Source of the DNA: an uncultured archaeon
GTDB lineage: Archaea > Thermoplasmatota > Penumbrarchaeia > JASLWR01
DNA: 64,000 nucleotides
Direction of reading: 5' to 3'
Assembly: GCA_964342815.1 (NCBI GenBank)
Contig: CAYFHS010000001.1
Span: 147,849-211,848 of the forward strand
Every line of letters starts with the position of its first letter. Positions within the stretch are counted from its first letter, which is position 1. The notes below the pieces were generated by a model. That model was not told the DNA's origin, ran no database searches, and worked only from the letters and a program-made list of their open reading frames with translations. This document shows positions 4,738 through 38,513 of the stretch, in pieces. The position numbers and the translations under genes are program-made.

Positions 4738-4791
4738 CGAAGCACTCCACAAAAAATGAAGGAATGTTGTCTGTAAAAAACAACGTGCTAA

Positions 4792-4812
4792 CACTATATA
4801 TATATTATCCGA
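4792..4812 (-). promoter_or_regulatory. Putative BRE-TATA promoter of paralog 1
   Basis: Minus strand GGATAATATATATATAGTG about 55 nt upstream of the start; similar motifs precede other paralogs. Confidence 0.5.
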
Positions 4813-13300: not shown

Positions 13301-14776
13301 CCGGACATCGAAGAACTTGTCCTCGGGATAGACATTCTCCGAACCCTCGTAGGCAACGGTCATATTGCTGAAAAGAAGTTTTTCTTCGCCCCTTATCCAG
13401 TCTCCCCGCTCAACGATCCCCTGATATTCACCCTCTACCACGGGCTCTCCCACCAGTTCAAGGTCATTTTCCACGCGAAATAGATAGGGGAACCGGTCAA
13501 GGTTGAATCTCCCTGAACTTCCGGTTGTATTTATATAGCAGTCTATTAGGTCCTCGTGCGGGAAGGCAAAGTCGATTACAAAAGAGAAATTAATCCACCA
13601 TTTCTCCACATTGTTGTTTGAAAACGCCGAATCGCCCAGAAGTTCCAGATGATTTCCGAGGTCATTAGCCTTGTAAAAGTTTTTTTGCGTCCCATTGAAT
13701 CCCAGGGTTATGTTGGTATTGTTGTAATCTATAAATATCCTCAGGTCGGAAAGATCGTCAAGGGATTCGAAGGTGGTGACGTTGATACCCAGTTTGTAGG
13801 AGCGGTAACCGGCGTAACAGACAGCGCTTTTATTATCCGAATCCAACAGGTTGACCGATTCCGGCTCCGGGGGACGGGCGGTGGGAAAATTATCCTTGAC
13901 CATTTCGATATATTTTACCATCTGAAGAAGCTCATTGTTTCCGCGGTTGCCCCAGTCGAAGGTCATCATGTTCATCATGACGTAACCTTCGTCCAGAACA
14001 TATTCTATGAAAGCCGGTTTATTGTTCGCATTGGACCAGAGAATGTCATTCCACTTGTTGGTTTCGGGATTTGTCCCGAGGTTCGCCCCGCCTGAGTCCG
14101 CGAGGTTACCCGGCGCGGTGACGTATCCATGGCAGGTGGTGCCCCAGGACCGAAAGTTATTGGCATTCAGTCCATTTCCCCCAAAACCCTGACCTGTTAT
14201 CCATTCATGGTCATTGTCTGAAACGATGGGATTTTCGTCGGTAGTACCTGATTGCTGGTAGCTGCCAAAGTTCGAACCGCCCGGCCCCGTCACATCCTGG
14301 CCGGAATTGTGCGCGGCATTTGCTACGAAAATACCTCCTTTCCGCACATATTTCTCGATGATACCCCCGTTCATCATTGTCTTTAACGATCCGTCTGCAA
14401 TATCGCCCTGACAGCCTGTGTAAATCGCATAATAGCGGTCGAAAAGGTACTCTGCATTGCGCTGGGCCGTGACACCGGCTTGCTCAACGTCAAAAGGTAT
14501 TCCCTGGTTCGTGAGATGACCTTGGAGAGTGTTGGTGCGATCCCCGCCATTCGAGCAGACCAGCACCTTGTTTGCAGCTCTACTTTTTCCGTGGACGCCT
14601 ATATCTGAGTCTTTACCTGATGCAGCGGGATATCGTATGTCACCATCATATGAGACCGAAGCTGTTATCAAACGGTCGTTCCGGTCCTCGGAGGATTGGT
14701 CAACAAATGTCGGGATTATTAAAAGCAGACATATTATCAAAGGAAGACTGCGAATGATTGAATTTAATAATTTCAT
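10376..14776 (-). CDS. Array paralog 3: surface protein with GATase-like head
   Basis: Head NKVLVC...YYAIYTG...IEKYVRKGGIFV...KPAFIEYVLDEGYVMM; conserved stalk, TM and zinc-ribbon tail. Confidence 0.85.
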   Translation of the reverse strand: MKLLNSIIRSLPLIICLLLIIPTFVDQSSEDRNDRLITASVSYDGDIRYPAASGKDSDIGVHGKSRAANKVLVCSNGGDRTNTLQGHLTNQGIPFDVEQAGVTAQRNAEYLFDRYYAIYTGCQGDIADGSLKTMMNGGIIEKYVRKGGIFVANAAHNSGQDVTGPGGSNFGSYQQSGTTDENPIVSDNDHEWITGQGFGGNGLNANNFRSWGTTCHGYVTAPGNLADSGGANLGTNPETNKWNDILWSNANNKPAFIEYVLDEGYVMMNMMTFDWGNRGNNELLQMVKYIEMVKDNFPTARPPEPESVNLLDSDNKSAVCYAGYRSYKLGINVTTFESLDDLSDLRIFIDYNNTNITLGFNGTQKNFYKANDLGNHLELLGDSAFSNNNVEKWWINFSFVIDFAFPHEDLIDCYINTTGSSGRFNLDRFPYLFRVENDLELVGEPVVEGEYQGIVERGDWIRGEEKLLFSNMTVAYEGSENVYPEDKFFDVRISDRKGNEWWDYESSGGKVSIEAVSGNVTNPDEEYTISIENIPENGICAANLDYPLKIDADAPLSPVNLLCHADDFKDKETGNTDKNEVFVTWDPVEDPASGLRGYYYSHDDNSTSENGSFTNKTEVEIDELPEGVVPVYVWCVDNVGNIGDSEVSEILVDLTVPYYSNYAPADGIWHNHTDIDCSVDIYDGEGSGVDGATVEYSISNNGVHGFDFWIPAWLPVQNEPMSPGVNYVFLEGEENFIKWRAKDISGNGFVESSPVNIKIDTTPIKFANVISPETEWYSQKSITTKITVSDLGSGVNQESFEARISSSGPNDFGHWIPIVPESISGSDVDGYEITVTFTYEEGADNFIMFRGTDLVGNPYTLSDKFNLKIDISPVYFGIFTPDENDYSNSQTVECFIEIMDDSSGVNPETVEYSIASGAGGDNKSFGPWKKVVNVVTGNPTQVLLDVEFQWGPDNYIRWRADDMMGTGHNISKSYRVWVNSRPEAIISSPDQASYFRYDREIMFDALDSYDDDGDNLSFYWSSNVTANKSLGSLPLFGGRLAPGKHIITLFVYDGHGYNESTDVNIEVGSRLHYETDSDGDGFSDGFERESGTDPYNSDTTPEGEPDIVPPETAGILGESSSMLLIILGCIFILILLILIIFFIVRKKKKSKEEKVDAPVKAGPKQLPYGQRPHSGQFTPPGPQMYGGGMQAPMTGMPGSQPQHLMLAPGPGFVNQSQFPTASPGQTFQGPPALNTGFTGESTYLLPSFQTDQGMQELTRLALPPAPEPGPAPVVFSGLDVPLPTPLADPMNMPAADISFPPSPAQPSPPPIPGQDIAPGEPAAPPAGTGDLSELDSYLAYLEDMTKTPEPAPPTTPSATPPAIPPTTPPDTPPATPPTTPPDTPPVTPPVTPPDTPPVTPPVTPPVTPPVTPPTAPPIPVETPAPSTNEMTMQCHSCGNNYTAEIIEYPALVTCPVCQTQGVINSA
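10538..10705. repeat. 12-bp tandem repeat (14 units) encoding (PPxT)n in the tail of paralog 3
   Basis: Units of the form TGGTGGTGTRAC / TGGCGGTGTATC counted directly. Confidence 0.9.
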
Positions 14777-14931: not shown

Positions 14932-17900
14932 TCATTGTGATTCTATGATGCCCTGCGTCTTGCAGACCGGGCAGGTGACCAGAGCCGGGTACTGGGATAT
15001 TTCTGCATTGTAGTTATTTCCGCATGAGTGGCACTGCATGGTTATTTCGTTAGTGACAGGCGCGGGGATCCCTTCATGAGCTTGTAGTGAGGCTGGCTGA
15101 AATGGCTCCGGTGGTGTGGGTAAAGTATCCAACGCGCCTATGGCCTGAACTGCCTCAGGTTGTAATGACAGATCCGGATTGTGTATCGAAGGCGCAGCGG
15201 CCGGATTCATTATTGCTTGCCCGCCCGCAGGATCCGGTCCGGGCGGAAGGGCCATTAGCTCGAGGTTCTGAGCCCCCTCTTCTGTAGAGAATAATGGTAG
15301 GGAATATGCGGTACTGCCTGAGGGACCCGGCCCTGCAGGACTGTAGGGGGGAAGTTGTGGAGAATAGTCATTTTGCGGTATTTGAGCTTGCGGGGCTTGA
15401 CCGGGAACGGGCGGGCCGTATTGGTTTGTGTTAGTAATACCCGCCCCCGGAGGGAAAACTGCCCCGGGGGCGCCGGCTCCCTGCATCCCCCATGCTGCTC
15501 CCTGGTATTGTGCCATTTCCCCGTATCCCTGGGGTAAGCCCGTGGGATGATATTGACCCTGGGGATAAGGATGCTGTGGAGGTCCGTATTGTGATTGCAT
15601 CGGGATGGGCATACCCGATGGTGAAATTTGTTCTGAATCCTTTTTCTTCCTTTTCCTTATAATGAACAAGATCACCAGAATGACAATTATCAGCAGTAAG
15701 ATACAACCTACAATCACAAACAACAGGGAAGAGTCTTCACCCAGTATTCCTCCGCGATCCTGATCAACGATATCCGGCTTACCTCCCGGGAAAACCGCTC
15801 TGTTATACGGGTCGGACCCTTTTTCACGCTCCAAGCCGTCGGAAAATCCATCCCCGTCGCTGTCCTTTCCATAAACAGCCGGGCCGCCCACCTCAATTCT
15901 GATTTTCTCACTCTCGTTGTAGCCGTGACCGTCTGACACAAATAAGGTTATAGTATGTTTTCCAGGTTCTAATTGAAAACTGAAATAGGCTCCTGAACCA
16001 ATTTGACGATTCGCACTGACATTTGAGGTCCAGTAATGGGTGAGGTTGTCCCCATCCTCGTCGGAGGAATGGGTGGCATCGAAGGTAATTTCGCCATCGA
16101 ACCTGAAATATGATCCGTCATCGGGAGACGATATCACAACTTTTGGTATGGAATTCACCCATACCCTGTAAGGCATCGACTCATTGAAACCGGTCCCCGT
16201 AAGATCGTCCGCACGCCATTTTATATAATTATCGTCACCCCATTCGAATTCCAGTTTCATAAGAACCTGGGTGGGATTTCCCGTAACCACATTTACTGCG
16301 TTTTTCCAGGGGTCGAAACTTTCATTGTCGGTCCCTCCGTATCCTATGGAATATTGAACCGTTGACGGATTCACACCCGAACCGTCATCTAATATCTGGA
16401 TGAAACATTCCACAGTTCTATCGTCAGCATATTCCTCCTCATCCGGTTTAAAGGTCCCGAAATATACCGGGGAACTATCTATTTTCAGATTGAATTTATC
16501 GGATAGTGTATATGGAGTTCCAACCATGTCGGTTCCGCGAAACATGATATAGTTGTCCTTTCCTTCCGCATAGCTGAAAGTTACCGTTATTTCGTATTGA
16601 CCTTCAACTGGTTCATGTATGTTCTCGGCATCTATGGATATCCATTTACCGAAATCATTTGGACCTGCAGTGGATATTCTTGCCTCCAGGCTTTCGAGGT
16701 CCACCCCGCTTCCGGTGTCACTTACGGTTATTGTTGTGCTAATTGTATTTTGCGCGTACCATTCAATCTGCGGAGTTATCTCATCATTGAAACTAACAGG
16801 GGTGATATCCACCTTTATGTTTACGGGCGGAGATTCGGAAAATCCGTTCTCTGAAATATCCTTGGCACGCCATTTTATGTAATTTTCTTCACCCTCCGGA
16901 AAGATGTATTTAACACTGGGGATTATGGGATTTCCTTCTTCCGGCACCCACGCGGGCATCCAGAAATTGAATCCGTGCGTTCCGCTTGCAGAGATCGAGT
17001 ATTCGATGGTGCTTCCGTCGACCCCTGATCCCGGTCCATCGAATATCTCAATTGAGCAGTCGATATCAGTATGATTGTGCCATGAACCATCCAGGGGTGT
17101 ATGATTTGAAAATACAGGCGGAGAAAGATCAACCAGTATTCCCGAAGAAGCCGCATCCCCAATATTCCCCACGTTATCGACGCACCAAACGTAAATTTCC
17201 GCGTATCCCTCTTCAAGCTCATCTATCTTAACTTCAGTAACATTGGTGAATGTCCCGTCAGTGGTTCCCGAATTGTCCGATTGTGAATAATAATATCCAA
17301 GAAGGCCCGAGGCCGGGTCCTCCACCGCATCCCAGGTTACGTACATCTCGGGCTGCTTGGTATTCCCGGTCTCCTTGTCCTTGAATCCTCCTGCACGGCA
17401 TTTGAGGTTTACGGGAAACAGGGGCGGTTCAGCATCGAGCTTAACGGGAAAGCTCAGATTGGTCATGCATATGCCCGAGCCGGGGATGTCCTCGATGGTG
17501 ATGAGATATTCCTCGTCCGGGTCGGTGGCGTAGCGCGTCCTTATTGGTAAGGAAATCCCCTCGACACTGGAACTGTTGTCCCACCATGTGTTTCCAAACC
17601 TATCAGTGATCCTGACATTGAAGAATTCGTCATCCGGATACAGCATAGGCGAACCCGCATAAACCACGGAAAGGTTGCTGACCGTGATGTTCTGACCTCC
17701 CTTTACCCAGTCCCCCGGATCGATTTTGCCCTGTTCTTCTCCGGAAAAAAACGGAGTGCCTGCAAATTCAAAATCGTTCTCCACCCTAAACAGCCATGGG
17801 AACCTGTCCATAGTATGTTCATTGGCCACCGAGCTGGTTTTGGTCAAGCAATCTATGGGTCTTTCGTGGGGAAATGAAAAATTGAATATCACAGAAAAAT

Positions 17901-18987
17901 TCACCCATATTCGATCTACCCCGTCATCCGCCAGTGTACAGTTATCTATGAGAAGATTGACGTCGTTCTTTTCGTCCTGTAACTTGAAGAATTCGTTTCT
18001 GCTCCAGTTATAACCCAGGGTGGCATTTGTCGTATTGTAATCAAGATAGACCTTCAGTTCGGAAACGTGATTCAGGTTTTCATTAGTAGTGAGATTGACG
18101 CTGAAGGTGTAGGGTTTATATCTGGTATAGCAGACATTTTCCTCACCCTTCGGAACCACGAGTGCGGCGGAGTCCGTATAGACCAGCAGATCCACTGCGG
18201 AGTAGCGGTACCAGGTGTTTCTGCTGAACTCGCATGCCTGCAGCTCCCTTCCGGTCCACGCAAGACCGTAATTCCCGCTGTTGTAGGGTGGATCGATGGT
18301 GCGCAGGTGCTGGCCGTTCATATCATACACCAGCAGCTCGTGATCGCTGTCCGATACGATGAGCATATTGTTGAAATAGAGCATACCAAAAGCGTTTGAG
18401 AAACGGAGACTGGGGTTGATGGTTCCGAGCTTGGCGCCGGTATTCTTGTCCAGCTTCAGTATTGGGCCGTAATTGAAAAGGCCATACACGTATTTATCAT
18501 CGCAGGTGATCCCTCTCGCCTGGCTTCCGTCGTTATACGTCCTGGCCCAGAGCTGGTTCCCGTTCCTATCGAACTTGTAGAAGGTTCTGCTGTTATCCCC
18601 TACATAGAGATTGCCATCGGAATCGGTTCCGAGAGCGATGGATCTTGACACGGTATTTCTCGTACCCACCAGCCTACCGGCATCGTTGTAACGGTGGATG
18701 GTGCTGCTTGACCACGACTGCTTGACCCAATACTCTTTGAAGTATCTCATATAGACCGAGCCGTATTGAGTGGTTCCATCCAGGTTTCTCGTACCCAGAT
18801 ATTGAAAATCCTCGGCCCTTGTCTCGTTCCCATAATTATTCCCGGATCCTCCATCGATTTCATCCGGTTCAGCCTCTTGAATATTATTTATACTGGCTTT
18901 CCCGATATTGAAAGAAAAGATCAGGCTGAACAGTGATATGGTGATCAGCAATACCGGCAAAATATCACTTAAGCGGGTACGTTTCAT
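14932..18987 (-). CDS. Array paralog 4: surface protein with NHL/PQQ-like beta-propeller head and shorter tail
   Basis: Likely start MKRTRLS at 18987. Head repeats ALGTDSDGNLYVGD, FDRNGNQLW, GITCDDKYVY, VYDMNGQHLRTI, GLAWTGREL; conserved stalk. Confidence 0.85.
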   Translation of the reverse strand: MKRTRLSDILPVLLITISLFSLIFSFNIGKASINNIQEAEPDEIDGGSGNNYGNETRAEDFQYLGTRNLDGTTQYGSVYMRYFKEYWVKQSWSSSTIHRYNDAGRLVGTRNTVSRSIALGTDSDGNLYVGDNSRTFYKFDRNGNQLWARTYNDGSQARGITCDDKYVYGLFNYGPILKLDKNTGAKLGTINPSLRFSNAFGMLYFNNMLIVSDSDHELLVYDMNGQHLRTIDPPYNSGNYGLAWTGRELQACEFSRNTWYRYSAVDLLVYTDSAALVVPKGEENVCYTRYKPYTFSVNLTTNENLNHVSELKVYLDYNTTNATLGYNWSRNEFFKLQDEKNDVNLLIDNCTLADDGVDRIWVNFSVIFNFSFPHERPIDCLTKTSSVANEHTMDRFPWLFRVENDFEFAGTPFFSGEEQGKIDPGDWVKGGQNITVSNLSVVYAGSPMLYPDDEFFNVRITDRFGNTWWDNSSSVEGISLPIRTRYATDPDEEYLITIEDIPGSGICMTNLSFPVKLDAEPPLFPVNLKCRAGGFKDKETGNTKQPEMYVTWDAVEDPASGLLGYYYSQSDNSGTTDGTFTNVTEVKIDELEEGYAEIYVWCVDNVGNIGDAASSGILVDLSPPVFSNHTPLDGSWHNHTDIDCSIEIFDGPGSGVDGSTIEYSISASGTHGFNFWMPAWVPEEGNPIIPSVKYIFPEGEENYIKWRAKDISENGFSESPPVNIKVDITPVSFNDEITPQIEWYAQNTISTTITVSDTGSGVDLESLEARISTAGPNDFGKWISIDAENIHEPVEGQYEITVTFSYAEGKDNYIMFRGTDMVGTPYTLSDKFNLKIDSSPVYFGTFKPDEEEYADDRTVECFIQILDDGSGVNPSTVQYSIGYGGTDNESFDPWKNAVNVVTGNPTQVLMKLEFEWGDDNYIKWRADDLTGTGFNESMPYRVWVNSIPKVVISSPDDGSYFRFDGEITFDATHSSDEDGDNLTHYWTSNVSANRQIGSGAYFSFQLEPGKHTITLFVSDGHGYNESEKIRIEVGGPAVYGKDSDGDGFSDGLEREKGSDPYNRAVFPGGKPDIVDQDRGGILGEDSSLLFVIVGCILLLIIVILVILFIIRKRKKKDSEQISPSGMPIPMQSQYGPPQHPYPQGQYHPTGLPQGYGEMAQYQGAAWGMQGAGAPGAVFPPGAGITNTNQYGPPVPGQAPQAQIPQNDYSPQLPPYSPAGPGPSGSTAYSLPLFSTEEGAQNLELMALPPGPDPAGGQAIMNPAAAPSIHNPDLSLQPEAVQAIGALDTLPTPPEPFQPASLQAHEGIPAPVTNEITMQCHSCGNNYNAEISQYPALVTCPVCKTQGIIESQ

Positions 18988-19056
18988 ATTACACACTCAT
19001 TTTTAGGGTATATTCATTAATATCTAAATGTAAAAACGCAAAAGCAATAATATTTA

Positions 19057-19086: not shown

Positions 19087-22000
19087 TTACATAGATTCGA
19101 TCATTCCCTGAGTCTGACAGACCGGGCAGGTGACCAGAGCTGGAAGCTGCACTATCTCGGCTGTATAATTGTTACTGCAAGAGTGACACTGTATCTGCTG
19201 GAATCCACTTCGATTACCGCCACTGTTTGGTGGCGGAAGAGAAGGGGAAGCAGATTCCTGCGTTTCCGAAGATGAAGCCAACAGACCCGTCTGTTGGCGA
19301 TTCATGGTTATCTCATTTGCAGCCTGGGCCGGAGTTTCCATCGGAACGGGAGGCTCCCGGATATCGGATTCCTCTTTTAAACTACCTATTGTGGCGAGAT
19401 AAGCGTCAAGTTCCCCGAGATCACCTGTATTGGCATTCGTAGGATCAATAATGGATGATGGACCTGTGGCTGCTGGGGCCGGAGGTGAAATTAGCTGTTG
19501 GCCGAAAGGAAACTGCTGTTCATCTACACTGGGCGATATGGTTTCAGGTTGTATCGGATTGATATTTGTTTGCGCTTCAGCGTGTATGGGTCCGGGAGGT
19601 AATGCCATCCTGTTGAGATTCTGCGAGCCTTGCTCGGTGGAGAACTGTGGAAGTGAGTAAGTGGTGCTGCCTGCGGCACCCGTACCAAGCTGACCGTATG
19701 GGATCTGCGGTTGTAATTGTAATGTGGGAGTTTGTCCGGGGGCAGCCGTCCCGAATTGCTGGGAGGCCCCCATCCCCGATCCCGAATTCATCATCATGGT
19801 AGGGGTATTCAGTCCTTGCATAGCCATGACCGCCGCTTGGTATTGCGCCATTTCTCCATAGCCCTGCTGCCCGGCTTCAGACATGTATTGACCCTGACCA
19901 TAGGGATGCTGGGATGGGCCGTATTGTGATTGTAGCGGGGGAGACTGGACGCTGGGTTCTTCGTCTTTTTTTCTTTTTCTCACTACAAAGAATATAACCA
20001 AAATCAGGATGATCAACAGTAATAATCCCCCAAGAACTACAAAAAGCAGTGAAGAACCTTCACTCAATATTCCCAATTTCTCCTGGACGACAATATCCGG
20101 CTCACCTTCCGGGGAAACCGCCCCGTTATGCGGGTCGGTACCTTTTTCGCGCTCCAACCCGTCCGAGAATCCGTCCCCGTCGCTGTCCCGCTCATAAGCT
20201 GCTTTAGAACCCACTTCGATTTTAACCTTCGCGCTCTCATTGTAACCATTCCCGTCTGACACGAATACAGTTATTGTATGTTTTCCAGGGGCCAGCACGG
20301 CATATTTAACACTGCCGACCCCCAGGAGCTGGTTGGCGCTGACATTGGATGTCCAGTAATAGGTGAGATTGTCTCCATCCTCGTCGGATGAATCGGAAGC
20401 ATCGAATGTAATTTCGCCGTCATAGCGGTAATACGACCCAGCTTCGGGAGATGAAATTTCTGCATCCGGCTTCGAATTCACCCATACCCTGTAAGGCAGT
20501 GACACATTGTACCCCGTTCCCATGACATCGTTGGCACGCCAACGTATGAAATTATCGGACCCCCATTCGAACTCCAACTCCATTAGAACCTGCGTGGGAT
20601 TCCCCTCTACAACGTTAACTGCCTTCTTCCACGGCCCAAAACTTTCATTGCCGCCGCCCCCTTTGGCGACAGAATATTCGACGGTTTGGGGATCTACCCC
20701 CGATCCGTCGTCCAGTATCTGTATGAAGCATTCCACGGACTTTCTGTCCGCAAAATCATTCTCGTCCGGTGTGAAATCGCCGAAATACACCGGGGAAGTA
20801 TCGATTTTCAGATTGAATTTGTCTGACGAGGTAAAGGGATTTCCCACCATGTCCGTGCCTCTGAACATGATGTAATTATCCTTCCCTTCCGGGTAAGTGA
20901 AAGTGACGGCTATTTCATAACCGTCGTCACCGAATTTAGTTATATTTTCCCGGTCAATTTGCATCCATGTGCTGAAATCATTTGGGCCCGACGTGGATAT
21001 CCTTGTTTCGAAGCTTTGCGGATCCAAGCCGCTTCCGGTATCGCTAACCGTTATCTTTGTTGTTATTGAATGGTGATCATACCAATCCTTCGGGGGTGAT
21101 ATCGCATCGGCAAAAATGACGGGAATCGTGTCGATCTTTATGTTTATGGAAGGCGATTCCGCAAAGCCGTTCCCCGAAACGTCCTTTACCCTCCATTTTA
21201 TGTAATTTTCTTCACTCTCCTCAAAGATGTATTTTACGCTGGCCACCGTCGGTTCGTTCTCTAGAGGCACCCATGCAGGTAGCCAGAAATCAAAACCGTG
21301 TACTCCATCATTGGACACGGAGTATTCTATTGTAGTGACGTCGACTCCCGAACCAGTGCCGTCATATATTTCCACCATGCATTCTATGTCCGTGTGATTG
21401 CGCCATGAACCGTCCAGGGGAGTATGGTTCGAAAAGACCGGCAGCGTAAGGTCCACCAGTATGCCCGAATTTCCTGCCTCTCCAATGTTTCCCACATTAT
21501 CGATGCTCCAAACGTAAATTTCCGCAAATCCTTCACCCAGCTCATCGATCTTTACTTCTGTTTCATTGGTGAAAGTCCCATTTGTGGTTCCCGAATTGTC
21601 CAAATGAGAATAATAATAACCCAATAGACCCGAAGCCGGGTCCTCCACTTCGTCCCAAGTGACGTACATCTCGGCCTGGTTGGTATTCTCCGTCTCTTTG
21701 TCCTTGAAACCCCCGGCCCGACACTTCAGATTAACGGGAAACAGGGGTGCTTCTGCATCGATCTTTACCGGGAAGCTTAGATTTGTCATGCAAATACCGG
21801 AACCGGGGATGTTCTCGATGGTTATGAGATATTCCTCAGCCGGGTCGGTGACCTTTTGCGTATTAATGGAAATTGAAATCCCTTCCACGCTGGATGAATT
21901 GTCCCACCACGTTTTTCCGGTCCTGTCCATGATCCTGACATTGAAGAATTCATCATCCGGGTACCGCATTGGAGACCCTGCATATATCACTGTAATATTG

Positions 22001-23418
22001 CTGACGGTGATTGCCTGATTTCCCTTTACCCATGATCCGGATTCGATTTTACCCTGTTCGTCCCCGAAAAAGAATGGTGTGCCTTTAAACTCGAAATCGT
22101 TCTCGACACGACAAATATGAGGGAATCTCTTCATCCGTGATTTGCCGTTGCTGGCTCTTATCTTGACAAAACAGTCAATCTTCTTCTCATGTGGAAAAGT
22201 AAAATTAAATCTGATGGAGAAATTTACAAACCATTTATCATCACCGTTATTTGAAAAAGCACTGTCTTTGACCAGAAGCTGCACATAGCCGTTTTCGTCC
22301 CCCAATTTGAAGAATTTCCTTTGCGTCCAGTTGAATCCCAGGGTGGCATTTGTTGTATTATAATCGAGCCATACCTCCATTTCAGAGGCATCGTCAAGGG
22401 TTTTGGTGGTGGTGATATTCACGCTGAGATTATATGAGCTGTACTCTGCATAACATACTTTTCCGTCGTCTATATCACCTTTCAATGCCGCAGATTCCAC
22501 GTTCGTGATCCTTACCCCCCCAATTTCGGGATAATGATAAACGTTTCCCTGATTCCAGACGAGAAGACTGTTGTCCTCTGCATTGTAAGAGGTATGGGCG
22601 ATGTATCCTCCGGCACCGAGACTGTTTGAGTACGAGCTACGGGAGGAAGTGCTGGTATCGTATTTGTAATTGAAGGTTGCGCTGTTGTATGAATTTCCCC
22701 AGTACAATACACCGCCGACCATGAATGCCCAGCCCACGTTTCCCTTGTTCCTGCCAGTATTCCAGGTTTTTAAAACGTTCAGATTTTCATCCAGTTGGCT
22801 CAATTGCATGGGTTGTGAGGTCGATGTCGCCCAGCAGACGTAGAGACCGGTCTCGTCACTCATAAGATTGATATCAGTGTAGCCGCCCCAATTGAAATGG
22901 GCCCGGTTGTGAAATCCCGCGTTTGGCAGTGCCCTCGATAGTACTTGAGCCATGTCCGTTGTCCTGCATTTTACCAGTGTGTTGCTGTTGTACTGCGCAT
23001 AGTAGAGATGGTTGTTGTAAATTGTGTGATAGGTTCCTTCGGATTGCCGTGGGAGATTAAATTGTCGAACACCGTTATTATTGATGAAGTTGGCCAGCGA
23101 AGTGTATCGATATACCGTTGACTCCCGATAGCTGTTATGATAGAACACATGTCCGTTCGATTCGTCCACATCTATAAAACCATAAGTGCTGAAACCACCC
23201 CTGATCTGCCCGAAATTATTTGATAATTGTCTCATCTCTTCATCGCTGCGTGTTTTTTTCACGCTGTTTTCCGCGGTCATTTCTCTTCTGACATTTATGG
23301 AAGTTTTCAGGGAGGGCTCCTCAATTGCGTCTGTAAGGTAGCTTTGGAAAGCCGTACTTATCATCACAACAAATATTGGGATGATTATTATCTTAGTCAA
23401 TTTCCGATTCTTTTTCAT
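19087..23418 (-). CDS. Array paralog 5: surface protein with olfactomedin-like head
   Basis: Head contains LPNAGFHNRAHFNWGGYTDINLMSDETGLYV...LNVLKTWNT...AFMVGGVLY...YKYDT...SYNAEDNSLLVWNQG, collinear with the OLF consensus; conserved stalk and tail. Confidence 0.88.
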   Translation of the reverse strand: MKKNRKLTKIIIIPIFVVMISTAFQSYLTDAIEEPSLKTSINVRREMTAENSVKKTRSDEEMRQLSNNFGQIRGGFSTYGFIDVDESNGHVFYHNSYRESTVYRYTSLANFINNNGVRQFNLPRQSEGTYHTIYNNHLYYAQYNSNTLVKCRTTDMAQVLSRALPNAGFHNRAHFNWGGYTDINLMSDETGLYVCWATSTSQPMQLSQLDENLNVLKTWNTGRNKGNVGWAFMVGGVLYWGNSYNSATFNYKYDTSTSSRSSYSNSLGAGGYIAHTSYNAEDNSLLVWNQGNVYHYPEIGGVRITNVESAALKGDIDDGKVCYAEYSSYNLSVNITTTKTLDDASEMEVWLDYNTTNATLGFNWTQRKFFKLGDENGYVQLLVKDSAFSNNGDDKWFVNFSIRFNFTFPHEKKIDCFVKIRASNGKSRMKRFPHICRVENDFEFKGTPFFFGDEQGKIESGSWVKGNQAITVSNITVIYAGSPMRYPDDEFFNVRIMDRTGKTWWDNSSSVEGISISINTQKVTDPAEEYLITIENIPGSGICMTNLSFPVKIDAEAPLFPVNLKCRAGGFKDKETENTNQAEMYVTWDEVEDPASGLLGYYYSHLDNSGTTNGTFTNETEVKIDELGEGFAEIYVWSIDNVGNIGEAGNSGILVDLTLPVFSNHTPLDGSWRNHTDIECMVEIYDGTGSGVDVTTIEYSVSNDGVHGFDFWLPAWVPLENEPTVASVKYIFEESEENYIKWRVKDVSGNGFAESPSINIKIDTIPVIFADAISPPKDWYDHHSITTKITVSDTGSGLDPQSFETRISTSGPNDFSTWMQIDRENITKFGDDGYEIAVTFTYPEGKDNYIMFRGTDMVGNPFTSSDKFNLKIDTSPVYFGDFTPDENDFADRKSVECFIQILDDGSGVDPQTVEYSVAKGGGGNESFGPWKKAVNVVEGNPTQVLMELEFEWGSDNFIRWRANDVMGTGYNVSLPYRVWVNSKPDAEISSPEAGSYYRYDGEITFDASDSSDEDGDNLTYYWTSNVSANQLLGVGSVKYAVLAPGKHTITVFVSDGNGYNESAKVKIEVGSKAAYERDSDGDGFSDGLEREKGTDPHNGAVSPEGEPDIVVQEKLGILSEGSSLLFVVLGGLLLLIILILVIFFVVRKRKKDEEPSVQSPPLQSQYGPSQHPYGQGQYMSEAGQQGYGEMAQYQAAVMAMQGLNTPTMMMNSGSGMGASQQFGTAAPGQTPTLQLQPQIPYGQLGTGAAGSTTYSLPQFSTEQGSQNLNRMALPPGPIHAEAQTNINPIQPETISPSVDEQQFPFGQQLISPPAPAATGPSSIIDPTNANTGDLGELDAYLATIGSLKEESDIREPPVPMETPAQAANEITMNRQQTGLLASSSETQESASPSLPPPNSGGNRSGFQQIQCHSCSNNYTAEIVQLPALVTCPVCQTQGMIESM
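19195..19302. repeat. 108-nt in-frame palindromic insertion, copy in paralog 5
   Basis: Stems GCCAACAGAC/GTCTGTTGGC (19277-19298) and CCGCCAC/GTGGCGG; identical to the paralog 6 copy. Confidence 0.75.
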
Positions 23419-23510: not shown

Positions 23511-26500
23511 TCATATGGATTCGATCATTCCCTGGGTTTGGCAGACCGGGCAGGTTACCAGAGCTGGAAGCTGCACTATCTCGGCTGTATAATTGTTTCC
23601 GCAAGAGTGACACTGCATCTGCTGGAATCCACTTCGATTACCGCCACTGTTTGGTGGCGGAAGAGAAGGGGAAGCAGATTCCTGCGTTTCCGAAGATGAA
23701 GCCAACAGACCCGTCTGTTGGCGATTCATGGTTATCTCGCTTGCTGCTTGGGCCGGTGTCTCCATGGGAACGGGAGGTTTGGGGGGCTCTGAGCCCGGTG
23801 ATTCAGTCATACCGCCCAATGCGGCCAAGTATGCATCCAGTTCTGCCAGGTCGCCGATATTATCTGAGGAGGGCCCGGTTGTCTCCATAGCAGGAGATGC
23901 TGCTGTTTCAGCCACCGTATCTGGCGGCGGAGACGGTAACGGTTCAGCTGGAAATGTCGAATCCACTCTCGTTGAAGATATTGGATCTGGCGGCGTTGGT
24001 AAAGGCGTTCCCGGCGATCCTGCATCCGGCAGGATGGGGGGTTGCAGAGGCATGTCAGGAACAGAAGGTGGATAAGCAATCCCCAAATCCGCTGCAACGG
24101 GTGCTGGAGGTGAGGCGGGGCCTGGAGGAAGCGCCATTCTTTGGAGATCCTGCAGTCCCTGATCGGTTTGGAAGGAAGGAAGTAAATAGCCAGGATCCGC
24201 TGGGATACCCGGGCCAATCCCCGGAGGACCCTGCTGGGATGGAAATGCTTGAAATGCGGGACCACCAGGAACAACGTGGGGCCCGGGAGGCAGCATCAAT
24301 TGCGGCGATTGTATCCCCTGCATTCCAAATCCCGCTCGATGGCCAGGGTCGGGACCTGAATATCCCTGCGAGACAGGAGTCTGGTACTGTCCCTGCTGGT
24401 AAGGGTGAGGACTAGGTCCTGGGTACGTCTGCTGCGTGGGACCCGGAGCGGAGGGGGCGGGTACCTTCTTTTCGGATTTTTTCTTTTTCCTTAAAATGAT
24501 GAAAATGATCAGTATCACTAACACGAGAAGGAAGATACAGGCTAGGATTATGAAAAGTAACGAAGATCCACCGCTCAGTATCCCGCCGGGTTCCGTGATC
24601 ACTATGTCGGGTTCGCCTTCCGGGATTACGGCGCCGTTGTGTGGATCGGTTCCGGACTCCCGTTCCAGACCATCCGAGAAACCATCCTCGTCGCTATCCT
24701 TTTCGTATTCGACCCGGCTGATCACCTCGATTTTTACTTTCTCACTCTCGTTGTATCCGTGGCCATCAGAAACGAATAAACTGATTGTATGTTTTCCCGG
24801 GGCTAATCGAACAATGAACTTGGCATCACGTCCGACAGAGCGGTTCAAACTGACATTGCTAGACCAGTAAAAGCTGAGGTTGTCCCCATCCTCGTCGGAG
24901 GACCCCGAAGCATCAAAGGCAATTTCGTCATCGTAACTGAAATATGACCCTTGAGCTGGTGATGTAATAATCGCTTCAGGTTTTGAATTCACCCATACCC
25001 GATAAGGGATCGATATGTTGTGTCCGGTCCCCATCATATCGTCGGCCCGCCAGCGGATGAAATTGGCGGCCCCCCAGTCGAATTCCAGCTCCATAAGAAC
25101 CTGTGTGGGATTGCCTTCTACCACATTTACTCCCTTGTTCCAGGGCCCAAAATTTTCATTGTCACCCCCGTTCGCAATTGAATATTCCACTGAAGAAGGG
25201 TTCACCCCAGAGCCGTCATCGAATATCTGAATGAAACATTCCACCATCTTGTCGTCCGCATAATCGTTCTCTAAAGGCGTGAAAATCCCGAAATATACTG
25301 GCGAGGTGTCGATTTTCAGATTGAATTTATCAGATAATGTTATGGGGTTGCCAACCAGGTCCGTTCCCCTGAACATGATGAAGTTATCCTTTCCCTCCGC
25401 ATACCTGAATGTGACTGTAAGTTCGTGGCTGCCGCCATCGTTTTCACTGATGTTTTCGGCGTCTATTGACATCCACCGGCCGAAATCATTAGGGCCGGAA
25501 ACAGAAATTCTTGTTTCGATGCTGTCCGGCTTCACTCCACTTCCGATATCGCTAACCAATATCGTTGTTGAAATTTCTGCATAATCATACCATTCCATCT
25601 GAGGCGATATCTCCGCTGCGAAATTGATGGGAGTTGTATCAACCTTCAGGTTAACAGATGACGATTCGACAAATCCATTTCCTGTTATATCCTTTGAACG
25701 CCATTTTATATAATTATCTTCGCCCTCATGAAATATATATTTTGTACTTGGCACCATGGGTTCATTATTCTCGGGTATCCACGCAGGTATCCAGTAATCG
25801 AAACCATGCACTCCGTTATCCGACACTGCATACTCGATGGAGCTGCCGTCGACTCCCGATCCCGCCCCATCAAAGATCTCGATGGAGCAATCTATGTCCG
25901 TCTGATTGTGCCATGAACCATCCATGGGGGTATGGTTCGAAAAAACTGGCGGTGAAAGGTCCACAAGTATGCCGGAGCTTGCGGATTCGCCGATATTCCC
26001 GACCATGTCAATGCACCATACGTAGATCGAGGCAAATCCTTCGTGAAGGTTCTTCAATTCCACCTCGGTGACATTCAGAAAGGTACCGTTGATACTTCCC
26101 GAATTATCTGCTTGTGAATAATAATATCCCTTGAGTCCGGATGCGGGATCCTCTACGGCATCCCAGGTTACGAACATACCGGGCTGATTCGTATGCTCGG
26201 TCTCCTTATCCTTGAAATCATCGGCATGACACTTTAGGTTGACGGGATAGAGAGGAGGGTCCGCATCAATTCGTACGGGGAAGGTCAGATTTGTCATGCA
26301 AATGCCGGTTCCGGGTATATTCTCGATGGTGATATAATATTCTTCTTCCAGGTCGCTAACGTTTCTCGAAGTCAGATTTATTTCGACGCTCTCGTTACTG
26401 CTTTCATTGTCCCACCAAGCTTGCCCCGTTTTATCGGTAATCTTGACATCGAAATAGTCGTCCTTGGGGTAGATATCAACGGCTCCCGCATATCGTACCA

Positions 26501-27824
26501 TAAGATTCGCGACGTTAATATTCTCATTACCCCGGATCCAGTCGTTTTTCTCCAATGCTCCCTGAAATTCACCGGTTAGATCTGGAATACCCACCAGCTC
26601 CATGTCATTCTCAACCTTGAACAGATTGGGGAAGCGGTCGGTTCTTACAATTCCCGTGATAGCAGCGGTGCTAATGAAACAGTCCACCTGGTCTTCGTGG
26701 GGAAAGGTGAAATTGAAAATTACGGAGAAATTGAGCCACCACCTTTCGACACTGTCGGTGGTAACAGTGGAATCGTCAACAAGAAATTGAACGTGTCCGT
26801 CAGTGTCCTGATATTTGTAGAAACGTTTCTGCGTCCAGTTATAGCAAAGAGTAGCATTTGTAGTGTTATAATCAAGGAAAACCTTTACCTCGGAGACCTC
26901 GGTTAGTTCCTTCGCGGATGTGATATTAACACTGAGAGTGTACGGGCGGTGCCGGGCATAGCATATCTTGTTCTCGTCACCATGTCCTAAAATGGCGGCG
27001 TTATCGGCATATGCCGTAAGATCCACTTCCAGCCAACATGCCACAGGCATCCCACCCTGGTTTTGGCCCACAGTGAGAAGAATATCGGAGCCCTGCGGAA
27101 TGGTAGTTATCTCTCCGTGGGACGCGGAACTGCCTGAGAACGAGGGACGGTTCATGTTTCTCACCATGGGGTGATTGACCGCCACCACGAAATTATGGCT
27201 GTTACCATTTCCATTGGTCCTTACACCGAAAGGGCCGGGAACGCCCCTGGACCAACGGCGTTGATAATTCGTACCGAACATGTCGATCAGTATTCCCCCG
27301 TTATTCACATAGTCCTCCATGGTTGAAACCATGGACTCCATCTTGTTCATATGCTGGTTCGGCTGGTATTCGGATATTATGATCATACGAAAAACATTCG
27401 GGTCAAAATCATTCACATTGACCGCACCGGCACTTTTCTGTGTAAATTGTATCCCCCTGGTGTTCATCTCCCGGCGCCAGCCGTCAGACCAACCCTGATG
27501 ATCCCATATTATGAGTATGGGCCCCGAATCCGCATGGGTTGGCCAGAGCCAATCGAATGTATTCATGATGAAGAAACGGGAATGTTGGCCGTTCCCGTAA
27601 CCGTAACTTGCTATGGTCCCAGTGACAAAATAAATTCCCTTATCACCGGCGCTCCTTTTATTTGATGTTATGGCCAATTGCCTCGAAGGGTTCTTTGGCT
27701 TCACCTCTATTTCCTGGTTTTCTTGGAGGGCCATGTAGGAGCACAAGGACAAATATCCGGTTCCCATGATACAGAAAACAACAGCAATCGACACCACCAC
27801 GGGCATTATATTCGATCTTCCCAT
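23511..27824 (-). CDS. Array paralog 6: surface protein with apparently circularly permuted GATase-like head
   Basis: Head begins GDKGIYFVTG...FFIMNTFDWL, then ILIIW...FRMIII...MEDYVNNGGILI, and ends GGMPVACWLEV; conserved stalk and tail. Confidence 0.85.
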   Translation of the reverse strand: MGRSNIMPVVVSIAVVFCIMGTGYLSLCSYMALQENQEIEVKPKNPSRQLAITSNKRSAGDKGIYFVTGTIASYGYGNGQHSRFFIMNTFDWLWPTHADSGPILIIWDHQGWSDGWRREMNTRGIQFTQKSAGAVNVNDFDPNVFRMIIISEYQPNQHMNKMESMVSTMEDYVNNGGILIDMFGTNYQRRWSRGVPGPFGVRTNGNGNSHNFVVAVNHPMVRNMNRPSFSGSSASHGEITTIPQGSDILLTVGQNQGGMPVACWLEVDLTAYADNAAILGHGDENKICYARHRPYTLSVNITSAKELTEVSEVKVFLDYNTTNATLCYNWTQKRFYKYQDTDGHVQFLVDDSTVTTDSVERWWLNFSVIFNFTFPHEDQVDCFISTAAITGIVRTDRFPNLFKVENDMELVGIPDLTGEFQGALEKNDWIRGNENINVANLMVRYAGAVDIYPKDDYFDVKITDKTGQAWWDNESSNESVEINLTSRNVSDLEEEYYITIENIPGTGICMTNLTFPVRIDADPPLYPVNLKCHADDFKDKETEHTNQPGMFVTWDAVEDPASGLKGYYYSQADNSGSINGTFLNVTEVELKNLHEGFASIYVWCIDMVGNIGESASSGILVDLSPPVFSNHTPMDGSWHNQTDIDCSIEIFDGAGSGVDGSSIEYAVSDNGVHGFDYWIPAWIPENNEPMVPSTKYIFHEGEDNYIKWRSKDITGNGFVESSSVNLKVDTTPINFAAEISPQMEWYDYAEISTTILVSDIGSGVKPDSIETRISVSGPNDFGRWMSIDAENISENDGGSHELTVTFRYAEGKDNFIMFRGTDLVGNPITLSDKFNLKIDTSPVYFGIFTPLENDYADDKMVECFIQIFDDGSGVNPSSVEYSIANGGDNENFGPWNKGVNVVEGNPTQVLMELEFDWGAANFIRWRADDMMGTGHNISIPYRVWVNSKPEAIITSPAQGSYFSYDDEIAFDASGSSDEDGDNLSFYWSSNVSLNRSVGRDAKFIVRLAPGKHTISLFVSDGHGYNESEKVKIEVISRVEYEKDSDEDGFSDGLERESGTDPHNGAVIPEGEPDIVITEPGGILSGGSSLLFIILACIFLLVLVILIIFIILRKKKKSEKKVPAPSAPGPTQQTYPGPSPHPYQQGQYQTPVSQGYSGPDPGHRAGFGMQGIQSPQLMLPPGPHVVPGGPAFQAFPSQQGPPGIGPGIPADPGYLLPSFQTDQGLQDLQRMALPPGPASPPAPVAADLGIAYPPSVPDMPLQPPILPDAGSPGTPLPTPPDPISSTRVDSTFPAEPLPSPPPDTVAETAASPAMETTGPSSDNIGDLAELDAYLAALGGMTESPGSEPPKPPVPMETPAQAASEITMNRQQTGLLASSSETQESASPSLPPPNSGGNRSGFQQMQCHSCGNNYTAEIVQLPALVTCPVCQTQGMIESI
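23619..23726. repeat. 108-nt in-frame palindromic insertion, copy in paralog 6
   Basis: Flanked by ATG...ATG; stem GCCAACAGAC/GTCTGTTGGC at 23701-23722. Confidence 0.75.
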
Positions 27825-28669: not shown

Positions 28670-31600
28670 ATGAGAAAGATAATATTGCTGATGGTTATCT
28701 TGTTGTTGTTGGCACCCTTTAATGTATTCTTTACAGCCGACCGTTCATCGTTTGTTTCCAACACTGGTACAAACGACATGAACAATCAGCTTAATTCGCA
28801 GAGCGGCAGTAGAGATGCAACCTCGAACCCATACAATTCAATATTCTACGAAGATTTCGAAAGTGGATTTGTGAATTGGACATCGTCGGGTGCTGAGATC
28901 AACCAAGAAGCCCATAACGAACCGAGCCAATCGAACTCGGCCAACCTGGACGGCCAAGGAGATACTCTTACAACTAATGCCATAGATCTTCGCGGCTACG
29001 GTTACGGCCACATGGATTTCAACGTCCAACCTGGAGGCGGAAGTGATCCCCCGGAAGTAGGGGACGACCTCACTGCATGGATGAACCTGCAAACAGTCGG
29101 ATGGATGAGGGTAAACATCAGCAAGGGAACCGGATTATCATCACCAGATTTCACCGCTGTTTTCATCGGACTGCCCAAATCCGCATTCCATCAGAACTTT
29201 CAGATACGCTTCACCACTCAGAGTACTGGCGGAGGTACCGATGATTGGTACATTGATAATGTGAAAGTGATCGTTACCGAAGGATCAAATTTATTTTTTG
29301 ATGATTTTCCAGCAAATCCGCCGAACAATGCTTTATGGCCAGTGTCTGCGGGAACGCCGGTGGTGAATGGCAACGGCCAGAATATTCCAAGCACGGGTAC
29401 CGCGCTGAATTTGGACGGTTCCGCCGATACCTTGCAATCCAGGGAAATCAACCTGGCACGCATCAGTGAGGCATATTTGTATTATTGCTGGGAGCAGGGG
29501 GATGGCAGTAATGGCAATCGTGACGAACCCGAAAGTGGAGATGACTTTATTTTTGAATATTATGTTGTCGATCCGGCTCCCCAGTGGGTGCAGTTGGAGC
29601 TTGTGTCTCAGGAAGGAGGAAATGATCCGGGCCGACCGTACTTCATCTATTCCACCGTTTCTCTACCGTGGGATGCCCACCACGAACAGTTTAAATTCCG
29701 TATACGTACGAATCAGGCCGAAAATGGTCTTGATGATTGGTTCTTCGATAACATAGGATTGAATACTGCACCTTCCTATACTGCAGCATTTTTCGACAAT
29801 TTTGATGGCGGCCAACTTACCAACGAAAATTGGCCGTCCGGAAATCGGAAAGGTTCACCTCAGGTAAACAACAGGGGTGCGAATGAACCCTCACCGACCT
29901 ATTCAATGAATCTCGACGGAAGTGGGGACACGGTTATATCGACCACTATCGATATATCCTGGGCACCCTGGGCCACCCTGTCATACTGGTGGCAGCAGGG
30001 AGGAGGGGGTGACGAGCCTGAAGCTAATGACAATCTCATCGTCGAAATAAACGTGAGCTCCGGATGGCGGGTGGTCAAAACACACCTGGGTGCTACCCAG
30101 GGAACAAACACGTTTACCATGGAAGAATTCCCGCTGCCCCAGGATGCATTATACGACAAGTTCAGAGTAAAGTTCAGCACTACCCAGGGCCAGAACAGCC
30201 AGGATGATTGGTTTATCGATAACGTGAGCGTAAGAAAGGGAAAAGTGGCAAATCCGCCCGATATATTTGAAGATGCCTTCGATTCCGGGAACATTCAGTC
30301 GAATTGGGAAATATTGAAGGGTAATCCTCAGATCAACGGGGACGGTAAGAATGAACCGTCACCTTCATCTTCCCTGAATTTCGACGGTCAGGGTGATATG
30401 ATCGCCAGCGGCGGGATCGATCTGGGATCTTCCGGTTCGGCCATTTTCAGTTTCATGTGGCAGCAGACCGGGGACGCGAACGATCCTGAAAATGGAGACG
30501 ACCTATTTGCTGACATACTACTCCATCCAACAGGGTGGTTCAACGTATTCCACGCAAAGGGTGCGGACCAGGCTAAAAACTTCTATTCCAATTTCACATT
30601 CGTATTACCCAATACCGCACTACATGGCAATTTCAGAGTGAGATTCAGGGTGAGCTCTACGGAGGGAGTTGGAAAGGATGATTGGTTCGTCGACAACGTA
30701 TCGATAAAGGGTAATGCGGCCATTGGATTCAGAAAGGTGGGTGTATATTACGAATATTCCGACAGAGAGGAAGAAGGGATCAATCCGGTAAAAGCATTGA
30801 GCTCTCAATTTACCGATTTTAAGCTGTTCCTGTTCGATAACTACAAGTATGCGGCAGAAAATCTTAGTACCTTGGATTTTTTCATAATCTGTGAGCAGGA
30901 AAGTCTGGCAGCCGGCAAAGCAGGTGACATTCATAATTACTGGAAAAGTTCCATGACCGATTTATTCAACATTACCGGTAGGGTTGTAGTGCTCGATGGA
31001 GGCTCGGGAAATTCCAGGCTCTTGGTAAGTTCGTTTCTAAGCTCCAATGCCCATCAAAATGTCCCGGGAAATCCCAATATTGACAATGACATGCCCAACC
31101 ATCCAATTTCTAATGGATTGCCGAATATCTTCGCCGGTCCCACGGAAGTGGCACATTTTGCCGGGGTAAACGGAAGAGAGGTGATGTCCGTAAACAACAA
31201 TCCCGTGGTGGTTGAGAAACGAGCTGCACGGGGTTCGGTAATGCTTTTCGGCTTCGATTACTCGGAATGGAATGTATATACCGAGAAATTACTTTTCAAT
31301 GCATTCAACTGGTCAGTGACGAATAAAATCCATGCGGGCGAGCCCACTATTAAACGAAATGAGGTATTTGCAGGTCTTCCGGTAACGATGTTGGTGGATG
31401 TGGGCGACACCATCGGACCCGATGACGTCAGCAGGGTCAGGGTGGAATTCAACGATACAGGTGTGGGTTTCGAATACGAGAGTGAAAATGTAAGGAAATT
31501 TGGAAATAATAATGGGACTGTCTCTCTGGATTCATGGAAAGTTGAAAAAGGTGTGGAGAACTTTACACTTAATCTGACCCTATCTTTCGGGTGGGATTTC

Positions 31601-37986: not shown

Positions 37987-38513
37987 AATTCGACCTTTTA
38001 TTGGATGGAAAAACATACGACGTGGAGCTGAAGCTCGGCAAAACCGTGGTTGTTAAACTCAATGGTGAAACATTCCAGGCAGAAATGGGCCAAAGTGAAA
38101 AGGGTTTCAATATTTTATTGGACGGAAAGAAATCTCTTGTACTGCTGACAGGTTCCCATGTTTCGGTTGACGGCCATCGACATCTGGTGGAAGTGAGGAA
38201 TCTGAGGAGAGGGACGCCTTCATGGTGTAATAATTCTGAAGAAGGTAAAGAAGGTCCGGCACCCAACCCTTCAAGGATAATCTCTTGTGGTGAAGGCGTG
38301 GTTTATCCACCCATGCCAGGGAGGGTAGTTGCCATAAACGTCACGGAAGGCGATCAGGTAAAGATCGGCTCTTCGATCCTGATACTTGAAGCCATGAAGA
38401 TGCAAAATGAGATTTGTTCGAAATGGAGTGGGCGCGTGCGGGAGATAAAGGTATCCGTAGGCGATATGGTTGAATCGGGGGATGTATTGATGGTAATAGG
38501 AAATAAACCTTAA
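37983..38513 (+). CDS. Biotin carboxyl carrier protein
   Basis: PPMPGRV...EAMKMQNEI biotinylation motif. Confidence 0.92.
   Translation: MKFDLLLDGKTYDVELKLGKTVVVKLNGETFQAEMGQSEKGFNILLDGKKSLVLLTGSHVSVDGHRHLVEVRNLRRGTPSWCNNSEEGKEGPAPNPSRIISCGEGVVYPPMPGRVVAINVTEGDQVKIGSSILILEAMKMQNEICSKWSGRVREIKVSVGDMVESGDVLMVIGNKP

Follow-up and report, generated by a model that had tools for sequence, protein, structure and literature searches.

The gene and its olfactomedin head

The window analysed here is a stretch of 64,000 nucleotides from an uncultured marine Thermoplasmatota archaeon (assembly GCA_964342815.1, contig CAYFHS010000001.1, positions 147,849 to 211,848), and the gene in question is a long open reading frame on its minus strand that appears to encode a membrane-anchored surface protein with an olfactomedin (OLF) domain as its N-terminal part, followed by a stalk, a transmembrane helix, a tail and a zinc ribbon. 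An earlier note, made from the letters of this DNA, had read positions 22528-23235, which are residues 62-297 of the 1443-residue frame, as an OLF propeller forming the head of a prokaryotic surface protein. The parts of the gene are as follows, in positions of the window.

19087-23418, minus strand: the whole gene, a 1443-residue open reading frame translated as a type-I membrane surface protein with an OLF head
23332-23418, minus strand: putative N-terminal signal peptide or signal anchor, residues ~1-29, a basic start followed by a hydrophobic run (sequence and hydropathy scan)
23236-23331, minus strand: variable linker, residues 30-61; over residues 1-59 identity to orthologs is only 39% and 22%
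22504-23235, minus strand: OLF five-bladed beta-propeller head, residues ~62-305, with the Pfam match at residues 86-297 (22528-23163)
22459-22503, minus strand: head-to-stalk junction, residues 306-320, where similarity to the paralogs starts (nucleotide and protein alignments, bridging contig)
20050-22458, minus strand: conserved extracellular stalk, residues 321-1123, of repeated beta-rich modules with 20 N-glycosylation sequons
20218-20418, minus strand: PKD-like domain in the stalk, residues 1001-1067 (Pfam PKD_4, PKD and Big_9; match to a collagenase PKD domain in the PDB)
20125-20187, minus strand: TSP3-type calcium-binding motif in the stalk, residues 1078-1098 (Pfam TSP3_bac)
19981-20049, minus strand: single transmembrane helix, residues 1124-1146 (hydropathy maximum 3.52), followed by RKRKK (positive-inside)
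19204-19980, minus strand: cytoplasmic tail of ~260 residues, of low complexity and rich in Pro, Gln, Ser and Gly by composition, its last part with a 36-codon insert
19090-19203, minus strand: C-terminal CxxC...CxxC zinc ribbon (Cys1411, 1414, 1431 and 1434), invariant in all six paralogs of the window

The signal, the single helix with its RKRKK and the 20 sequons of the stalk together predict that the head is extracellular, and the order of the parts, with the OLF domain at one end of the stalk and the membrane helix at the other, places it at the distal end of the surface protein, as had been proposed. Pfam and PDB searches of the stalk returned nothing beyond the PKD-like and TSP3 modules, and a Pfam search of the cytoplasmic tail returned nothing beyond Zn_ribbon matches, which are weak.

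The assignment of the head is carried by profile, sequence and structure comparisons. Pfam OLF (PF02191) matches residues 86-297 with an E value of 9.3e-41 and 140.5 bits against a cut-off of 23.9, covering positions 26-243 of the 246 in the model, and a six-frame search of the whole genome with the same profile scores the head at 145.6 bits. Among PDB sequences, phmmer returned olfactomedin domains only (noelin 1.7e-29, myocilin ~3e-28, latrophilin-3 2e-24, gliomedin 2e-17). An AlphaFold2 model of the head, computed from a 71-sequence alignment, reached a mean predicted local distance difference test score (pLDDT) of 93.6 and a predicted template-modelling score of 0.91, and no structure other than OLF appears among its best 50 Foldseek matches in the PDB, which have template-modelling (TM) scores of 0.74-0.84 by query length and root-mean-square deviations of 2.2-4.5 Å; the top match is 6QHJ (E 9e-23, TM 0.84/0.87). 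The predicted head superposes on noelin, myocilin, latrophilin and gliomedin at TM 0.83-0.87. Profile matches and the predicted fold agree in confirming that the head of this archaeal protein is a genuine olfactomedin domain, a five-bladed propeller, as the earlier note had suggested.

Since the genome is a metagenome-assembled bin (4.35 Mb in 116 contigs, 88.9% complete, 3.2% estimated contamination), an animal or bacterial OLF fragment might be imagined to have been misjoined to an archaeal gene in assembly. However, the window sits on a 343-kb contig and contains housekeeping genes (acyl-CoA carboxylase subunits, succinyl-CoA ligase, malic enzyme and an HdrA-like protein), and composition is the same across the junction, with a GC content of 46.9 and a third-codon-position GC (GC3) of 55.7 in the head vs 47.5 and 54.1 in the stalk. 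The junction near 22500 is bridged without differences by a contig from another sample (run X4, 22294-22575); contigs from runs X3 and X5 flank both sides without bridging, and several bins are uncovered, from which nothing is inferred. The fusion of head and stalk recurs in three species-level genomes and in further ENA and JGI contigs. Orthologs in other assemblies have 1396-1454 residues and heads 80-89% identical to this one, the closest public records being 'Thermoplasmatota archaeon ETNP2_MAG_1' (head identity 89%) and 'uncultured archaeon' (80%), and in another genus the gene downstream of the OLF gene is an ortholog, head included, of the paralog downstream of it here (P0003, 66% identity). 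Given the orthologs, the conserved neighbour, the even composition and the bridging contig, a chimera or contamination is excluded for practical purposes, and we regard the chance of one as vanishingly small. The earlier argument that a seamless fusion to the local stalk speaks against contamination thus stands, with the join in frame, the stalk native to the genome and the assemblies independent. One identical 199-nucleotide metatranscriptome contig lies within the head and is a weak hint of transcription.

A stalk family with swappable heads

The OLF protein is one member of a family whose copies recombine and whose heads are swappable. Five further members lie in tandem with it in the window:

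493-4794, minus strand: paralog with the same stalk, transmembrane helix, tail and zinc ribbon, its head weakly ThuA/GATase1-like
4885-9168, minus strand: paralog with a head of no known family
10376-14776, minus strand: paralog with a head of no known family
14932-18996, minus strand: paralog P0003, its head weakly like a PQQ/BamB propeller; its ortholog also adjoins the OLF gene in another genus
23511-27824, minus strand: paralog P0002, with another head and a 3' end 95% identical to that of the OLF gene

By protein alignment, the six genes are all alike from residue ~320 on, and their first ~300 residues are unrelated. The same boundary is visible in the DNA, where the OLF gene is 25-47% identical to its five neighbouring paralogs before residue 320 and 50-84% identical through the stalk after it. 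Close paralogs number 13 in this genome: contig 1 carries a tandem run of eight, contig 26 has three, and contigs 2 and 53 have a single copy each. They have in common a stalk rich in glycosylation sites, a lone transmembrane helix and a cytoplasmic tail rich in Pro and Gln, and the zinc ribbon closes 12 of the 13; there are also ~14 more distant relatives, and the stalk has 34 matches in the host genome. The OLF protein has each of the family's features (a stalk of ~800 residues, the single helix, the tail and the CxxC...CxxC motif), and its stalk is 62-70% identical to that of the seven tandem copies and 39-54% identical to that of five more. By BLAST, the only relations among the 13 heads, each of ~300 residues, are a trio and a weak group, and the heads fall into at least eight groups that are unrelated to each other. 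Pfam gave only sub-threshold matches for the other five heads of the window, with the ThuA/GATase1-like and PQQ/BamB-like folds as hints for two of them.

Exchange between the copies has left traces at the 3' end of the gene. Over their last ~80 codons (19090-19330 and 23514-23750) the OLF gene and the adjacent paralog agree at 94-95% of nucleotides, while the tail that precedes these codons is ~40-50% identical; a tract of 95% identity beside so divergent a tail points to recent conversion between neighbouring copies. The 36-codon insert lies within this 3' tract and is present in three of the six paralogs of the window. In a genome of the same genus, the gene upstream of the OLF gene (L004:1444-5730) has a P0002-like stalk (58% identity) with a different head, and the gene downstream (L004:10302-12737) is unrelated to the stalk family; with such differing neighbours, the array evidently changes between close relatives.

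Other large genes accompany this family. Contig 10 carries a seven-gene array of more distant stalk relatives. Beside the array in the window, a 1958-residue protein (28670-34546, plus strand) matches Reelin subrepeat B (PF21471, E 2e-13), a domain best known from animals, and also matches part of the same stalk and the zinc ribbon; a 2041-residue giant surface protein (38510-44635, minus strand) contains seven right-handed beta-helix/NosD stretches and several PKD domains. A six-frame translation of the host genome gives 360 open frames of at least 900 residues, an upper bound that includes spurious frames.

Within the OLF protein the parts have not diverged alike. In two comparisons between orthologs the head is 88.6% and 80.1% identical, the stalk 75.0% and 55.9%, and the tail 43.8% and 25.0%. 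The rate of nonsynonymous substitution (dN) is 0.068 in the head vs 0.153 in the stalk, and the ratio of dN to the synonymous rate (dN/dS) in the head is 0.083. Judged by these rates, the OLF head is the best-conserved segment and is under strong purifying selection, a constraint that would be expected for a specific recognition surface. The head, over 246 residues, also lacks any N-X-S/T sequon, vs 20 in the stalk (2.45 per 100 residues), and this may reflect either a binding surface kept clear of glycans or a trace of foreign origin.

Cavity, distribution and descent of the domain

The earlier note had further aligned the calcium ligands of myocilin with N, W and S in the archaeal head and considered the site probably absent. 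The alignment columns read as follows.

22867-22869, minus strand: Asn184, at the position of the calcium ligand Asp380 of myocilin
22729-22731, minus strand: Trp230, at the position of myocilin Asn428, an aromatic residue replacing a calcium ligand
22588-22590, minus strand: Ser277, at the position of myocilin Asp478
22714-22716, minus strand: Gly235, at the position of myocilin Cys433, the conserved animal disulfide being absent

These four assignments are the same in a noelin alignment and in an alignment of 84 sequences, and they hold in all five archaeal orthologs, so that this part of the earlier reading is upheld. The calcium triad consists of Asp380, Asn428 and Asp478 of myocilin, the first of them nearly invariant in animals, and a D478S variant of myocilin does not bind calcium (PMC6719662). 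Among the animal rows sampled here, Asp380 is present in 30 of 30 and a cysteine at the 433 column in 28 of 30. Because the cavity triad of the archaeal head reads Asn-Trp-Ser, internal calcium is predicted to be absent, and by alignment the head has neither the ion triad nor the disulfide to Cys433 that mark the calcium-binding subtype. The OLF domain of gliomedin is likewise without an internal calcium ion and without the N-to-C disulfide (PMC4488277), and both are therefore features of a subtype rather than conditions of membership in the family. Gliomedin (4D77, 4XAV; Foldseek TM 0.83/0.88) nevertheless differs from the archaeal protein in several respects: it stands in the animal group, is the weakest of the PDB sequence matches and is shed from a collagen-containing type-II protein, and it is the archaeal cavity that has the aromatic residue at position 428.

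Other animal OLF domains, such as those of noelin/OLFM1, myocilin and the latrophilins ADGRL1-3 (6QHJ, 4WXQ, 5AFB), belong to the same Pfam family (140 bits) and have the same propeller, with an identity of 24-28% in the structural alignments, and they too are extracellular and stand at the end of a multidomain protein. They are, however, C-terminal, after a coiled coil, collagen or lectin region, whereas the archaeal domain is N-terminal on a type-I stalk; they have Asp-Asn-Asp and Cys433 where the archaeal domain has Asn-Trp-Ser and lacks that disulfide partner; and the archaeal domain is further set apart by its lack of sequons, its host and its position outside the animal clade. Bacterial OLF proteins, which are undescribed in the papers searched, resemble the archaeal one in being secreted or surface-anchored with the OLF domain as a terminal module. 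They comprise PEP-CTERM proteins of ~300 residues ('PEP-CTERM sorting domain-containing protein [Undibacterium sp.]'), lipoprotein or Cys-rich forms and 'gliding motility-associated-like' giants of the Bacteroidota type, and they differ from the archaeal branch in their anchors (PEP-CTERM, lipobox or of type IX secretion system type) and stalks, with an identity of 24-40% to it.

The residues of the cavity divide the family in two. Column 428 is W, Y or F in the archaeal sequences, in the bacterial clade A (BAC_A), in the PEP-CTERM clade and in the amoeba Pelomyxa, and N, D or E in animals and in the bacterial clade B (BAC_B). The former groups have Asn or Cys, then the aromatic residue, then Ser, Tyr or Phe, so that the archaeal head shares its calcium-free cavity with the PEP-CTERM and BAC_A clades; animals and BAC_B have Asp/Asn(/Asp) together with Cys433. 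Clade BAC_B (P0006-P0055) keeps Asp380, Asn428 and often Asp478 and Cys433, which is the animal-type site and unlike that of the archaeon.

Papers on olfactomedins describe OLF as a domain of multicellular organisms (PMC6719662, PMC4488277). In the literature searched, which covered few subscription journals, no paper on a prokaryotic or archaeal OLF was found, and this is weak evidence of absence. The earlier statement that OLF is known mainly from animals therefore holds for that literature but fails for the sequence data. An exhaustive search of 1.84 billion cluster representatives returned 518 OLF clusters at E <= 1e-3; of the best 128 clusters with a near-full-length OLF domain, roughly one in three looks bacterial, and many of the best 150 have lipoprotein signals, PEP-CTERM anchors or Bacteroidota-type leaders. 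The bacterial examples that were checked lie in compact prokaryotic neighbourhoods and bear names such as '[Undibacterium sp.]', '[Pseudomonadota bacterium]' and 'gliding motility-associated-like protein', and precomputed Pfam annotation already marks bacterial and archaeal OLF proteins. Genome by genome, prevalence was counted in one bacterial phylum and, for archaea, in Thermoplasmatota. In the bacterial phylum, to which one of the OLF-bearing genomes belongs, OLF was found in 10 of 301 sampled genomes, in up to four copies and with E values down to 1e-77. In Thermoplasmatota every one of the four genomes in the host's GTDB family (also its order) has the domain, which was not found in the 33 other genomes of the class, nor in the other 397 of the 401 that were sampled from the phylum. 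Queried with the head alone or with a 44-sequence prokaryotic OLF alignment, word-index protein searches gave only the close orthologs and one other protein, and a GTDB-wide contig scan with one protein gave two close loci only. As far as we have seen, what is new here is the first archaeal OLF lineage among the sources searched, its architecture and its Asn-Trp-Ser cavity.

The same family of archaea has a second candidate. Another protein of ~1450 residues in the host genome (G000:C1:335169-339524, minus strand) has a divergent OLF-like head that occurs in all four genomes of the family (loci L002, L007, L008 and L009), with a Pfam score of 29.8 bits and an hhalign probability of 96% (E 4e-9). 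Its AlphaFold2 model is of low confidence (pLDDT 54.8), so that its best fold hits, which are OLF, are a hint only, and in the tree it forms a very long branch; it would be either an old duplicate or a separate acquisition. Also among its fold hits is the archaeal surface-layer protein 1L0Q, in which a tandem YVTN beta-propeller is joined to PKD. This is a different propeller family without OLF homology, and the likeness is one of layout only. The YVTN propeller of 1L0Q has seven blades.

A maximum-likelihood tree of 84 OLF domains, with the bacterial and animal labels checked for representatives, was read as an unrooted tree in which every group is one side of a branch. A well-supported split (99/96) separates the archaea, the bacterial clade A with Pelomyxa and the PEP-CTERM clade from the B-box proteins, the bacterial clade B and the animals, so that the three bacterial clades lie on both sides, and the columns of the triad split the family in the same way. 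The animals form one clade (98/83), in which nine of ten sampled deep branches are named animal proteins, and this clade is sister to clade B (100/95), with the archaeal sequences outside. The archaeal clade (100/100) has a stem of 0.65 substitutions per site, attaches on the internal path and is nested in no sampled group. Three OLF hits from Pelomyxa schiedti (P0024, P0025 and P0137), one of them fused to a TRIM-like RING/B-box region, group with the bacterial clade (99/96), with which they have the calcium-free cavity in common, and this suggests a transfer from a bacterium to a protist. As the tree is unrooted, the calcium-free cavity may be the ancestral one. The sister position of BAC_B offers a lead on the origin of the animal OLF family.

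An animal or another eukaryote might be thought of as the donor of the archaeal head, as the earlier note had allowed in naming capture from an animal as one of two origins. The best pairwise identities of the head to fish and other animal OLF domains (35-41%) equal those to bacterial ones, and non-animal eukaryotic OLF domains do exist, in Pelomyxa and in the B-box proteins of protists. However, the animals group with a bacterial clade to the exclusion of the archaeal sequences, and a clade of archaea plus animals is rejected by the approximately unbiased test (log-likelihood difference 59, p 5.6e-6). The Asp380 found in every sampled animal row is Asn in the archaeon, Cys433 is absent, and the archaeal sequence is nested neither with Pelomyxa nor with the B-box group. 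On these grounds an animal source was rejected, and capture from any eukaryote is very improbable.

The other origin that the earlier note had named was a prokaryotic reservoir or ancestor of OLF. A reservoir does exist, and it is mostly bacterial; the archaeon, on the other hand, is more likely a recipient, since OLF was found in one family only among the 401 sampled genomes of its phylum. The opposite view, that OLF is ancient in Archaea or arose there, was inherited vertically with losses and gave rise to the OLF domains found across prokaryotes, might draw on the deep and separate position of the archaeal clade, on the second, very divergent head in the same four genomes and on the fully native composition of the gene. 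It is nonetheless distinctly unlikely in light of the absence of the domain from 33 of 33 other genomes of the class and from the 397 others sampled in the phylum, and of bacterial OLF clades on both sides of the tree. With the tree unrooted and the archaeal stem long, it is this taxonomic distribution, and not the tree, from which the direction of transfer is read. There is thus good reason to think that a single acquisition from a bacterium brought the head to the ancestor of the archaeal family, and we hold this to be quite probable.

Role and meaning

The comparisons of sequence establish a genuine OLF propeller that is predicted to sit at the outer end of an archaeal surface protein anchored in the membrane, and a head whose affinity is non-animal. 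The explanation that we favour as a whole, and consider likely, is that of an OLF-tipped membrane glycoprotein of a swappable-head stalk family, with a head of bacterial origin. An acquired OLF head would have been grafted onto a resident stalk by recombination and then kept by purifying selection. On a single type of stalk, the cell would present a range of heads for binding or catalysis; the top face of the OLF propeller might bind a protein or glycan on particles or on other cells, without internal calcium, and the tail and zinc ribbon could link the scaffold to a cytoplasmic partner. On balance, the architecture and the roles of animal OLF domains favour a head that would bind the ligand at the tip of a surface receptor or adhesin; the adhesin tip of the earlier note is plausible.

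It is also conceivable that the OLF domain is a self-associating or lattice-forming cap, and that the stalk family makes up an outer glycoprotein coat whose heads serve cell-cell aggregation or the packing of a canopy. The family is large and heavily sequon-bearing, as would be expected of envelope proteins in wall-less archaea. Cell aggregation is a role of animal OLF proteins such as amassin, and amassin-4 is among the OLF hits; in addition, JGI calls several bacterial proteins with OLF and PEP-CTERM 'autoaggregation protein RapA/B/C'. That name is automatic, however, and not an experimental result, at least eight unrelated heads on one stalk would be needless for a coat protein, and the conservation of the head above that of the stalk fits specific recognition. 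A coat or cap, although the chief competitor for the role, seems rather unlikely to us.

Several considerations weigh against the explanation preferred here, that of a bacterial head on the tip of an archaeal receptor or adhesin. The role itself is argued from architecture and from the functions of animal OLF proteins. The calcium-free cavity that the archaeon shares with two bacterial clades may be an ancestral state and not a mark of kinship with them, and the archaeal clade, on its long stem (0.65), is placed between the two halves of an unrooted tree. Finally, the one RNA contig could derive from carried-over DNA.

The olfactomedin family has been implicated in glaucoma, synapse formation and cancer, and its ligands and basic function are largely unknown. 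The archaeal and bacterial domains show that the fold is not an animal invention. The family falls in two by a character, an acidic calcium triad with a cysteine or an aromatic-plugged cavity, with the animals beside one bacterial clade, and the origin of animal OLF becomes a testable question of transfer. The aromatic-plugged, calcium-free cavity is found in the archaeon, in two bacterial clades, in Pelomyxa and, in altered form, in the B-box group. It might tentatively be proposed, with rather more doubt than confidence, that OLF is prokaryotic in origin, that this cavity is ancestral, that the form with calcium and disulfide arose in one bacterial lineage (BAC_B) and passed from there to the animal stem, and that the archaeal proteins are a third independent prokaryotic lineage. 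If this were true, all animal olfactomedins would go back to a domain of bacterial surface proteins. OLF domains that are small and lack disulfides, calcium and glycans should express easily for structure determination and ligand screening, and the stalk family with its swappable heads may represent a system by which a marine archaeon without a cell wall diversifies what it binds.

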